A stretch of 64,000 nt of DNA from Alphaproteobacteria bacterium (GTDB lineage: Bacteria; Pseudomonadota; Alphaproteobacteria; UBA7879; UBA5542): positions 6,433 through 70,432 of the forward strand of contig JBAWWO010000001.1 in assembly GCA_037146715.1 (NCBI GenBank), given 5' to 3'. The translations under genes and the position numbers were made by a program. The notes beneath the pieces are model-generated. The model had not been told where the DNA came from. It saw only the letters and a list, made by a program, of their open reading frames with translations, and did no database searches. Shown one piece after another: positions 11,230 through 13,293 of this stretch (the first letter of the stretch is position 1; each line of letters opens with the position of its first letter).

Positions 11230-11943
11230 CTAAGCACTTGCACCAGATATCACCCCATTCTGCAACAAAAGTTCCAGGGTAGGGTGCAGGTCAAAATCAA
11301 GGCCGGATTGGGTTGCGCTTACGTAGGCGTGGCCTAAGGTTCCGCCCTCATAAAGAGTTGTCACAAATACAAATTGGGGCTTTGTCAGTTCAAAGAAGAA
11401 AGCCTTTAGATTTTTGGCGCGAATAAGGTAGAACTTTTCTTGTTTCTCTGAGTTCAGGCTTATTTGTTTTAAATCATAATCGCTTTCCAAAAAACGCACA
11501 CTCTCACAAAAAGAGAATTCCAACTGGGCCATGCTCTGGGCGTCTAAACTTTTCAGATGAGCCAGGGGCTGAATATCAGACGGATAGCTAAGTAAAGAAT
11601 CATGCAGCGCATATTCTAGCATCATCAGCTGACAAACTGGGGCGGGTATATAAGACTTTGCAAGTGCAGGAAAATCTTCCCCATAAAGGGCCATGTAGGG
11701 CATTTTCGGGGGGTGTGCGTGAAGATAACTGGCTGCTATCTCTTTAAACGCATCTTCGCCTATAAGGCAGCGAGTGCGCGGATATCGATCGCTTAGAGTG
11801 CTGTATAAGCTGCCCACTAGGCCGTTATAGTACACATAAAATCTTTCTTGAGTGTTCAGCGTACGTTCTGCTACCGGAACGGTTGTTGCAGTGTCTTTTA
11901 GCACTTTGTTTTTAAATTGGCTTTGAAAATCTTTCAGGCGCAT
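11230..11943 (-). CDS. DUF2063 family protein (HvfC/MbnC-like partner of DUF692)
   Basis: RFYVYYNGLVGSL..RYP..R.L.GEDAFKEIAASYLHAHPP matches the DUF2063 N-terminal pattern. Overlaps the upstream DUF692 gene by 10 nt. Confidence 0.7.
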   Translation of the reverse strand: MRLKDFQSQFKNKVLKDTATTVPVAERTLNTQERFYVYYNGLVGSLYSTLSDRYPRTRCLIGEDAFKEIAASYLHAHPPKMPYMALYGEDFPALAKSYIPAPVCQLMMLEYALHDSLLSYPSDIQPLAHLKSLDAQSMAQLEFSFCESVRFLESDYDLKQISLNSEKQEKFYLIRAKNLKAFFFELTKPQFVFVTTLYEGGTLGHAYVSATQSGLDFDLHPTLELLLQNGVISGASA

Positions 11944-12824
11944 GAAGTCATCACTTCTATAATGCTTTCCTGGGCCTTGGCCTGTGAATCCATTCTATCC
12001 ATCACCGCCTGCGCCCGTTGTTGCTCTCCCAGCAATACAGAAAGGACTGGGATTTTCGTATCCCACTCAATAAGGGTGGGTACAGGGCCCACCAATCCAA
12101 GAATTTTTTCATATATTGCCCACACCTTTGGGTCGATAAGGGAACTGTGGCCGTCAATCAAAAGGTTTTTTTCATTGGGGAGGGTTAGCTGATCATAGCC
12201 TGCCAGATGAATTTCACCGATTAGATCTTTTTGCGCCACATGATTCAGGTAGGTATCTAGGGGCCAATTGTGATTTGTGCAGCTGATGAAAATATTGTTC
12301 AGATCCAGTAAAATCTTGCACCCAGTTCGCTCAGCCAGTTCAGTCATGAATTCCCATTCAGTCACGGTAGACCAGGGGAATTCCATATAGGTAGAAGGGT
12401 TTTCAATCAATATCTGACACCCCAAAAAATCTTGGGTTTTCTCAATGTTTTGGGCAACTCTGTCAAAGGCTTCATCCGTATAGGGAAGGGGCATTAATCC
12501 ATTCAAATAAACCCCATCAACTTGAACCCACGAAACATGCTCAGAAACCAGGCCTGGCTCTAACCGGTGAATGAGGGACTTCAAAAACTTCAAATGATTT
12601 TGGTCAAGATCTTCGCTTCCCAAAGAGAGGCCTACGCCATGTAAGCTAAGGGGATAGGTTTCCCGAATTTTTTCCAATGCTTTTAGGGCCGATCCCATTT
12701 TAAAATTTTCTGGGTGAACCTCAAGCCAAGGGATATTTGGCTTTTGCTCTAAAATTTCATCAAAGTGGGGAAATCGTAAGCCAATGCCTGCATGAGAAGG
12801 AATTGCTTTAGAAACCCGTATCAT
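11934..12824 (-). CDS. DUF692/UPF0276 family TIM-barrel metalloenzyme (MbnB/HvfB/TglH-like)
   Basis: GIGLRFPH..IL...P.IPWLEVHPENF, LSLHGVGLSLGS, VSEHVSW, ILIENPSTY and LLDLNNIFIS are hallmarks of DUF692. Confidence 0.85.
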   Translation of the reverse strand: MIRVSKAIPSHAGIGLRFPHFDEILEQKPNIPWLEVHPENFKMGSALKALEKIRETYPLSLHGVGLSLGSEDLDQNHLKFLKSLIHRLEPGLVSEHVSWVQVDGVYLNGLMPLPYTDEAFDRVAQNIEKTQDFLGCQILIENPSTYMEFPWSTVTEWEFMTELAERTGCKILLDLNNIFISCTNHNWPLDTYLNHVAQKDLIGEIHLAGYDQLTLPNEKNLLIDGHSSLIDPKVWAIYEKILGLVGPVPTLIEWDTKIPVLSVLLGEQQRAQAVMDRMDSQAKAQESIIEVMTSCA

Positions 12825-13293
12825 TGGGGTCTAGATTTTGGGGGTCAAAGTGCGTGCATTGGGTTGGAAAACCTCGTTGAGAGGAAGGATACAGAGACCC
12901 AGTCAACATCTGACCTTTAGTGTTTGTGCCCACAACAAGCATGGCACACCAACCCTTGGGGACCCAACGCCAAGCGGCGGGGTCGCAGGCCTTTGCTTGG
13001 CCAGCTCCGTCCAGGCTAGTGCCATCAAAGGGGGCATAAGCGCAATGATTTTGATTTTCACCCGCAACGCCATAACACTTTTCGAATTGTCCGGGGGGCA
13101 ATAGGGCTGGTGGAACAGGTGGTGGGGGTGGCGGGCCCGCAATGGGGGATCCCTGTGTATTAAAGGCATCAGGCGCAAGAGTTGGGGCAGGGGCATCTGC
13201 CAGGGCAGAACTTGCCGACAAAGCCAGAATTAGGGCCGTTGAAAGGATGGTCATATCCTTGTGACTAATCAGGGGCGTTACGTCTTTTTTCAT
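12808..13293 (-). CDS. DUF2282 family secreted Cys-containing protein (HvfA-like putative substrate of DUF692/DUF2063)
   Basis: Signal peptide, then a Pro-rich linker, then the core EKCYGVAGENQNHCA....AKAC...W.WVPKGWC matching the DUF2282 consensus. Start chosen at the ATG with an AGGAT RBS (MKKDVTPL...). The ORF table's start at 13320 lacks an RBS. 17-nt overlap with the DUF692 start. Confidence 0.7.
   Translation of the reverse strand: MKKDVTPLISHKDMTILSTALILALSASSALADAPAPTLAPDAFNTQGSPIAGPPPPPPVPPALLPPGQFEKCYGVAGENQNHCAYAPFDGTSLDGAGQAKACDPAAWRWVPKGWCAMLVVGTNTKGQMLTGSLYPSSQRGFPTQCTHFDPQNLDPNDTGF

Follow-up and report, generated by a model that had tools for sequence, protein, structure and literature searches.

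Bufferins were described in 2024, when BufA1 was found to be a Sec-exported DUF2282 protein with four Cys residues (PMC11626156). A Sec signal peptide is among the features that define bufferin precursors; conversion of CysII and CysIII to 5-thiooxazoles (-4 Da each) requires BufB1 and BufC1, which also suffice for it, a CysI-CysIV disulfide forms in Buf1, and the DoxX protein (BufD) is dispensable in Caulobacter vibrioides and absent from buf2 (PMC11626156). The Buf1 product binds copper in the periplasm and slows killing by amoebae (PMC11626156). A 2025 survey reported thousands of Buf1 clusters with a core of precursor, MNIO enzyme, DUF2063 protein and DoxX, often with sigma/NrsF genes; Buf1 precursors in that survey were 30 to 835 residues long, and each had "the four conserved Cys" (PMC12452194). 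In 2026, all products of MNIO-DUF2063 pairs were grouped as 5-thiooxazole "captophorins," and oxazolin was reassigned accordingly (PMC13097082). Here, we describe three genes, bufA, bufB and bufC, in a stretch of 64,000 nucleotides from an Alphaproteobacteria bacterium (contig JBAWWO010000001.1, hereafter the window), which very probably constitute a Buf1-type bufferin (captophorin) biosynthetic operon with an unusual precursor. The literature on bufferins and DUF2282 that we examined makes no mention of Holosporales, endosymbionts or a five-Cys extended precursor.

To assign the three proteins to families, we compared them with Pfam, using gathering thresholds, and with NCBIfam, using curated equivalog cutoffs. 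BufA matched PF10048 (DUF2282/BufA1) over residues 80-131 of its 170-amino-acid (aa) open reading frame (ORF) (39.4 bits, cutoff 22.4, E 6e-10), BufB matched PF05114 over its full length (309.6 bits, cutoff 25), and BufC matched PF09836 (62.4 bits, cutoff 27.2). A first-pass annotation, made from the sequence alone, had named these genes DUF2282, DUF692 and DUF2063 and proposed a Pfam comparison; the matches bear out the names and, as far as family membership goes, its core reading of an operon that would modify Cys residues of a co-encoded, Sec-exported protein. BufB also passed the NCBIfam equivalog "MNIO family bufferin maturase BufB" (NF050167; 334.7 bits, cutoff 310), and it failed those for HvfB (NF003818; 195.8, cutoff 360) and MbnB (TIGR04159; 62.1, cutoff 325). 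The NCBIfam models for ApyH and ChrH likewise scored below their cutoffs with BufB, and the HvfC model gave 22.6 with BufC (cutoff 142). Because BufB passes the BufB equivalog and fails the HvfB and MbnB equivalogs, we placed the locus as Buf1 bufABC, a kind of operon that is already known and very widespread. The annotation's description of the locus as HvfABC/MbnBC-like thus stands for the type of enzyme pair (MNIO and DUF2063) and gives way to Buf1 for the family. Similarly, its reading of a Cys-modifying operon is retained, while the modification that the literature gives for this family is the 5-thiooxazole rather than the oxazolone/thioamide it had suggested (PMC11626156, PMC13097082).

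The closest described system is buf1ABCD of C. vibrioides (CCNA_03363-03366; Leprevost et al. 2024, PMC11626156), with which the window operon shares a Sec-type DUF2282/BufA1 precursor, adjacent BufB-type MNIO and DUF2063 genes, the A-B-C order, overlapping genes and the positions of CysI, CysII and CysIV. It differs in lacking DoxX (bufD) and the SigF/NrsF regulators, in its host, an intracellular Holosporales-like bacterium, and in its precursor, whose mature form of about 129 aa (against about 60-68 aa in C. vibrioides Buf1) begins with a 37-aa Pro-rich linker, has Gly in place of CysIII, gains a Cys 7 residues downstream of it and carries a fifth Cys in a conserved 45-aa tail. Buf2 (BUF_6/12Cys) resembles the window operon in being a bufABC without DoxX that has a Sec-exported product with more than four Cys; however, Buf2 precursors miss PF10048 and hold their extra Cys inside the terminal disulfide loop, whereas the window precursor matches PF10048 and has its extra Cys in a C-terminal extension. 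HvfABC/oxazolin of Haemophilus influenzae, fontiphorin and gonophorin also rely on an MNIO enzyme and a DUF2063 protein acting on a Sec-exported Cys substrate, and their products bind copper, but the precursors of these EGKCG captophorins are largely unstructured EGKCG repeats and the window BufA has no EGKCG, with its maturase below the HvfB cutoff. Precursors of the MbnA type are short and without a Sec signal, unlike this 161-aa Sec-type DUF2282 protein. Finally, the GIG (gold-induced genes) operons of Legionella pneumophila and Cupriavidus metallidurans have the same DUF2282-DUF692-DUF2063 content, but with short canonical four-Cys precursors, usually with DoxX, and in facultative organisms with large genomes. 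Legionella already provides an example of such an operon in a bacterium living inside amoebae (PMC5413113, PMC12452194).

Next, we examined the precursor. The N-terminus of BufA has a basic n-region and one hydrophobic segment, with ALA|DA after it; the protein has no other hydrophobic segment. This heuristic reading of segment and motif fits a Sec signal peptide, in line with the secreted small protein that had been annotated; predicted cleavage at SSALA|DAP would leave a mature protein of 129 aa. The old Pfam description of DUF2282 as a "predicted integral membrane protein" was rejected, as the sole hydrophobic segment is the signal peptide. All the motifs that had been quoted from BufA (EKCYGVAGENQNHCA, AKAC, WRWVPKGWC and GPPPPPPVPP) are found in its translation. 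The features that had been singled out as atypical, namely the Pro-rich linker, the tail of about 45 aa and the extra Cys, are genuine, and relatives retain them. The linker motif and the tail recur in seven close homologues of 152-173 aa (40-68% identity), in which P145, S146, R149, P152, C155 and G169 are invariant (residues are numbered on the 170-aa ORF throughout); homologues in this identity range also keep all five Cys. A PPPVPP-like linker motif and a Phe upstream of it are kept in the close subfamily. In 129 canonical sequences aligned with hmmalign, the median tail length is 15 aa, against 45 aa here. A search of the BufA profile against the PDB gave only a match to a Rieske oxygenase (E 0.97), which we judged spurious.

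An exhaustive hidden Markov model (HMM) search of 1.84 billion representatives yielded 202 relatives. About 35 of the 202 carry the tail, all of them in small metagenomic clusters; among 163 aligned sequences the tail occurs in 34, none of them canonical. We aligned 165 retrieved proteins with the window protein (166 in total), leaving out P0072, a 2164-aa match that was rejected as a BufA relative, having no Cys and Ig-like repeats. In the window BufA, CysI (C82), CysII (C93) and CysIV (C125) are canonical, and CysI and CysII are separated by the usual 11 residues. The canonical CysIII, found in an x-C-A-G motif, is Gly105, and 7 residues further on lies C112 (CysIII', motif A-C-D-P), where canonical proteins have Asp or Ala. 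The AKAC that had been quoted as part of the DUF2282 core is therefore present, but its Cys is non-canonical, and the loss of the canonical third Cys had gone unremarked. Judged by the four-Cys membership pattern of Buf1, the window BufA is off pattern, with CysIII missing and III' and V in addition. The canonical class I-II-III-IV accounts for 126 of the 166 sequences; 11 are of the window type (I-II-III'-IV-V), 7 have six Cys (I-II-III-III'-IV-V) and 17 form class D (I-III'-IV-V), without II and III. C155 (CysV) is present in 35 of the 36 sequences bearing C112, and V was never seen without III'. Even at about 25-30% identity these two Cys remain invariant, whereas some lineages have lost CysII and CysIII; III' and V often stand in a C-x-P context. 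Canonical CysIII is absent from the precursors of the window and of three related loci (L002, L003 and L006). What is new at this locus, modest but genuine, is thus a rare, conserved precursor subfamily with an N-terminal linker, a tail, loss of CysIII and a co-varying III'/V pair.

The maturase, by contrast with its substrate, is an ordinary enzyme of its family, since thousands of BufB proteins, those of free-living bacteria included, share 50-57% identity with it; relatives in Variovorax, Methylomonas and Herbaspirillum carry the name "MNIO family bufferin maturase." Nine of its residues (H62, H96, E141, D174, N177, H206, D224, H226 and E253) are invariant in seven enzymes of the subfamily and align with conserved His, Asp and Glu positions of 3BWW, 8HCI and MbnB. 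In view of the MbnB structures, we take this set to be candidate iron ligands. Among solved structures, the Histophilus DUF692 protein 3BWW is the nearest. While BufB is highly conserved, BufC is only 21-30% identical to the BufC proteins of related loci; a family profile of eight BufC sequences matches the Neisseria gonorrhoeae DUF2063 structure 3DEE (E 0.0024).

We then characterized related loci. A scan of one genome per species recovered only six, all in metagenome-assembled genomes (MAGs) named Holosporaceae or Alphaproteobacteria. The genes bufA, bufB and bufC occur together in every related locus with enough contig (L003-L007 and L012, with bufC fragmented in L003); L013 starts at bufB and so shows bufB-bufC only. 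L003 is a complete Holosporaceae chromosome of 1.02 Mb (CP060261.1). At its positions 7380-7879, bufC appears as three short ORFs of 67-68 aa, which may reflect either a pseudogene or assembly indels, and the bufC of its close relative L006 is intact (242 aa). Flanking genes differ among the related loci while the buf genes themselves remain adjacent: in L003, L004 and L006 (at about 3450-5900) the operon lies directly beside LysE-rpsT-dnaA, and its neighbors in the window are H+-PPase and uvrD/rep. A tblastn search with a DoxX query from a canonical cluster found no DoxX in the 64-kb window, L002-L007 or L012, and no homologues of NrsF or of extracytoplasmic function (ECF) sigma factors were found within the window. 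A canonical comparator, L015, was found via BufB; it encodes sigma-NrsF, a 98-aa BufA1, BufB, BufC and DoxX, and its BufB is 54% identical to that of the window.

Other loci hold class-D precursors in different company. At L008 (3945-6132 of Ga0194129_10000757), the gene for a divergent precursor that has neither CysII nor CysIII and escapes Pfam detection overlaps an intact MNIO gene. There is no DUF2063 gene in the vicinity, and a gene for a membrane-anchored His-rich repeat protein (..PAHH..) precedes the precursor, which suggests a metal-related locus of different composition. L009 likewise has an MNIO gene beside a His-rich membrane protein and, as in L008, no detectable DUF2063. At L010 (770-1645 of OJGZ01000167.1) and L011 (4818-5744 of a TARA scaffold), the gene after a class-D precursor is DoxX-like (tblastn E 2e-13); neither MNIO nor DUF2063 was found at these loci, which thus pair a precursor and DoxX but lack a maturase.

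By homology to C. vibrioides Buf1, we infer the following pathway. The genes bufA, bufB and bufC would be transcribed together. BufB, an MNIO iron enzyme, would act with BufC in the cytoplasm to oxidize one or more Cys residues of BufA to 5-thiooxazoles, each by a four-electron step with a loss of 4 Da. The Sec signal peptide would carry BufA to the periplasm and be cleaved after ...SSALA, and a disulfide would form between C82 and C125. The mature protein of about 129 aa would buffer copper, shielding the obligately intracellular, Holosporales-like bacterium from metal stress within its host. With CysIII replaced by Gly105, the second canonical modification site would be lost, a second disulfide between C112 and C155 would tie the conserved C-terminal extension to the DUF2282 core as a staple, and C93 would be the sole thiooxazole site.

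The co-occurrence of C112 and C155 fits two models, in which they pair or are themselves modified. Pairing, which would leave C93 as the only thiooxazole site, is the more likely reading, and we favor it moderately. C112 and C155 co-occur, and both stay invariant where CysII and CysIII are lost; C155 lies outside the CysI-CysIV loop (30 residues past CysIV), and all known modified Cys lie within that loop; the six-Cys class reads most simply as a canonical protein with one extra disulfide; and completeness of the machinery tracks the canonical target Cys. Every locus whose precursor keeps CysII keeps both bufB and bufC, and precursors without CysII and CysIII adjoin incomplete machinery (an MNIO gene without DUF2063 in L008, DoxX-like genes without MNIO in L010 and L011). 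An alternative that we consider possible but not probable is that the operon is the same and that C112 and C155 are extra or replacement modification sites or metal ligands, giving up to three thiooxazoles (C93, C112 and C155) and a metal site unlike that of canonical Buf1, completed by the folded-back extension. The L008 locus speaks for it: there, the precursor is limited to CysI, III', IV and V, and its gene overlaps an apparently intact MNIO gene whose product has all the ligand-type residues, a hint that the enzyme can act on III' and/or V. Yet L008 has no DUF2063 partner, which the model system requires, and L010 and L011 hold such precursors with no MNIO gene at all. Canonical Buf1 function requires two thiooxazoles, and the four modified Cys of Buf2 indicate that multiple modification is normal in the family (PMC11626156). 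New sites are made plausible by the poor conservation of DUF2282 residues near modified Cys (PMC13097082), and the C-x-P context often common to III' and V also speaks for this alternative. Besides L008, further points weaken the case for a C112-C155 disulfide in a one-thiooxazole bufferin. Single CysII or CysIII mutants of C. vibrioides lose copper protection (PMC11626156), so a bufferin with one thiooxazole might chelate copper poorly. The co-occurrence of C112 and C155 may stem from a single ancestral gain and, because the sequences are phylogenetically related rather than independent, is weak evidence by itself. AlphaFold2 models were too poor to bear on the C112-C155 distance, both for full-length BufA (7 sequences; predicted local distance difference test score, pLDDT, 41.8) and for core plus tail (6 sequences; pLDDT 43.7). 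As for the partner protein, the C-terminal half of BufC (about 100 to 237), the part where Buf1 partner proteins have an RRE-like domain, has no sequence family match, and a word-indexed search of 5.8 billion proteins for BufC homologues returned only BufC itself.

Two further explanations concern the operon as a whole. It could be a decaying relic, in which the loss of CysIII has ended a functional metallophore and the genes persist by chance or for a role unrelated to metal. Such decay could account for the lack of canonical CysIII in the window, L002, L003 and L006, the broken bufC of L003, the very fast evolution of BufC (about 25-30% identity within the subfamily) and the lack of DoxX and dedicated regulators. 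We nevertheless consider it improbable, given that the three window ORFs are intact and overlapping, that BufB has invariant ligand-type residues and exceeds its equivalog cutoff, and that the extension and five Cys are conserved in homologues at 40-68% identity; retention of a 2-kb operon in relatives, one with a genome of 1.02 Mb, argues for selection. More improbable still is an operon of the HvfABC (oxazolin) or MbnABC (methanobactin) type that installs oxazolone/thioamide pairs. The enzyme superfamily is the same (PF05114), a DUF2063 partner is present as with HvfC, and the closest structure comes from Histophilus (3BWW), but BufB falls short of both the HvfB and the MbnB cutoffs, and the precursor is a DUF2282 protein with neither EGKCG repeats nor an MbnA-like leader and core. 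Moreover, oxazolin and related MNIO-DUF2063 products have themselves been reassigned to 5-thiooxazoles (PMC13097082). A Buf1-type bufferin operon remains the reading that we prefer.

The layout of the operon is given in Table 1. Three coupled minus-strand genes had been annotated here, and we found all three ORFs present, intact and overlapping. By ORF coordinates, bufA shares 17 nt with bufB, and bufB shares 10 nt with bufC; these overlaps of adjacent genes support translational coupling. The true start of bufA is likely the second ATG of its ORF (M10). We preferred it because an AGGA lies 7 nt upstream, public gene calls begin there (161 aa), the alignment with homologues begins only at about residue 19 of the 170-aa ORF, and the position of the -35-like TTGACA would put the first ATG within the promoter spacer. 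A sigma-70 consensus scan upstream of bufA gave no full match, with the TTGACA as the only promoter-like element seen, and the bufABC promoter is presumed to lie in the divergent intergenic region. The GC content of the operon shows no anomaly.

Table 1. Coordinates of the bufABC operon, the parts of its precursor gene and adjacent features in the window
Feature	Coordinates	Strand	Description
bufA	12808..13293	-	Buf1-type bufferin precursor, 161 aa from M10; ORF reaches 13320 (170 aa)
bufB	11934..12824	-	MNIO (DUF692) bufferin maturase, 296 aa; PF05114 2e-92
bufC	11230..11943	-	DUF2063 partner protein, 237 aa; PF09836 5e-17
Signal peptide coding part of bufA	13198..13293	-	MKKDVTPLISHKDMTILSTALILALSASSALA then DAP; sole hydrophobic segment, A-x-A motif after
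Pro-rich N-terminal linker of mature BufA	13087..13197	-	37 aa, 14 Pro, includes PPPPPPVPP
DUF2282 core of BufA	12928..13083	-	Pfam match residues 80-131; alignment with canonical BufA1
CysI codon	13075..13077	-	
CysII codon	13042..13044	-	
Gly at canonical CysIII position	13006..13008	-	Gly105 of 170-aa ORF
CysIII' codon	12985..12987	-	
CysIV codon	12946..12948	-	
C-terminal tail of BufA after CysIV	12811..12945	-	45 aa, conserved motif G-x-L-x-P-S-x-x-R-x-x-P-x-x-C
CysV (C155) codon of tail	12856..12858	-	
Presumed bufABC promoter region	13294..13428	.	Divergent intergenic; TTGACA -35-like hexamer 13334..13339, minus strand
Hairpin	11105..11133	.	Perfect 13-bp stem, between convergent H+-PPase and bufC genes
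Divergent ORF	13429..13869	+	146 aa, signal-peptide-like N-terminus, called as gene in public assembly

The palindromic element that the first-pass annotation placed in the flanks of the locus exists, but only on the 3' side, and it does not bracket the operon. Its hairpin has predicted folding energies of -26.4 and -27.1 kcal/mol on the two strands (z -6.8 and -5.5). Because it has no T-run, it is not a canonical intrinsic terminator, and it is probably a bidirectional transcript end or stabilizer resembling repetitive extragenic palindromic (REP) elements. Five intergenic hairpins in the window, this one included, form a family that shares the core CCTCGGGy-N3-4-rCCCGAGG (717-737, 773-793, 11105-11133, 19307-19327 and 19382-19404); 18 matches to the core were observed against 8.2 expected in shuffles, and the family resembles REP elements. 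We rejected the idea of the operon as a mobile unit between repeats: a single 3' hairpin belongs to the repeat family, other repeat pairs are short and at chance level, and the GC content is not anomalous.

The divergent ORF upstream of bufA, annotated as a secreted protein, indeed exists and has a signal-peptide-like N-terminus. Neither Pfam nor NCBIfam gave a match for it, it does not lie beside the buf operon in related loci, and it is plausibly a secreted orphan. An ORF antisense to it (13365..13820, minus strand), rich in Ser and Arg, was rejected as a gene. Many other ORFs in the window have a signal peptide and no family match. Large ORFs at 16101-17354 (minus strand), 23353-24990 (plus) and 31762-34251 (plus) have hydrophobic N-termini and no Pfam match, and these three may be lineage-specific secreted or surface proteins. 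The window also encodes a Zeta-toxin/AAA-like protein with an apparent N-terminal signal peptide (18269-19135, minus strand) and a SUKH (SMI1/KNR4) family protein (2563-3060, plus strand); both families are often tied to toxin-immunity or effector functions. Neighbors of the operon are housekeeping genes (NrdR, NusB, SHMT, H+-PPase, UvrD/Rep and iPGM). A TLC ATP/ADP translocase is encoded at 3702..5222 on the plus strand (PF03219, 486 bits). This transporter is a hallmark of obligate intracellular, energy-parasitic bacteria and, with relatives of the locus in Holosporaceae MAGs, supports the intracellular host that had been proposed.

Bufferins are a very large, recently characterized family of ribosomal copper-binding peptides, and the known picture of MNIO chemistry is unchanged by this finding. 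Extension-bearing precursors have so far been seen only in Holosporales-like and other uncultured bacteria. We suggest tentatively, and with some doubt, that they may form a distinct bufferin subclass, defined by the C112/C155 pair, the 45-aa tail, the Pro-rich linker and variable loss of target Cys, in which the number (0, 1, 2 or 3) or position of thiooxazoles and the metal site would be unlike those of Buf1 and Buf2. Should this be true, the subclass could have another metal specificity or take part in host interaction in protist endosymbionts. The natural series of variants, from canonical Cys with the extra pair, through loss of CysIII, to loss of both targets beside incomplete machinery, could show how many thiooxazoles are needed and what the extension does. 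Finally, the retention of an intact bufABC in an ATP-parasitic, Holosporales-like bacterium whose relatives include a genome of about 1 Mb suggests that metal stress, probably from copper, in protist hosts selects on their endosymbionts.

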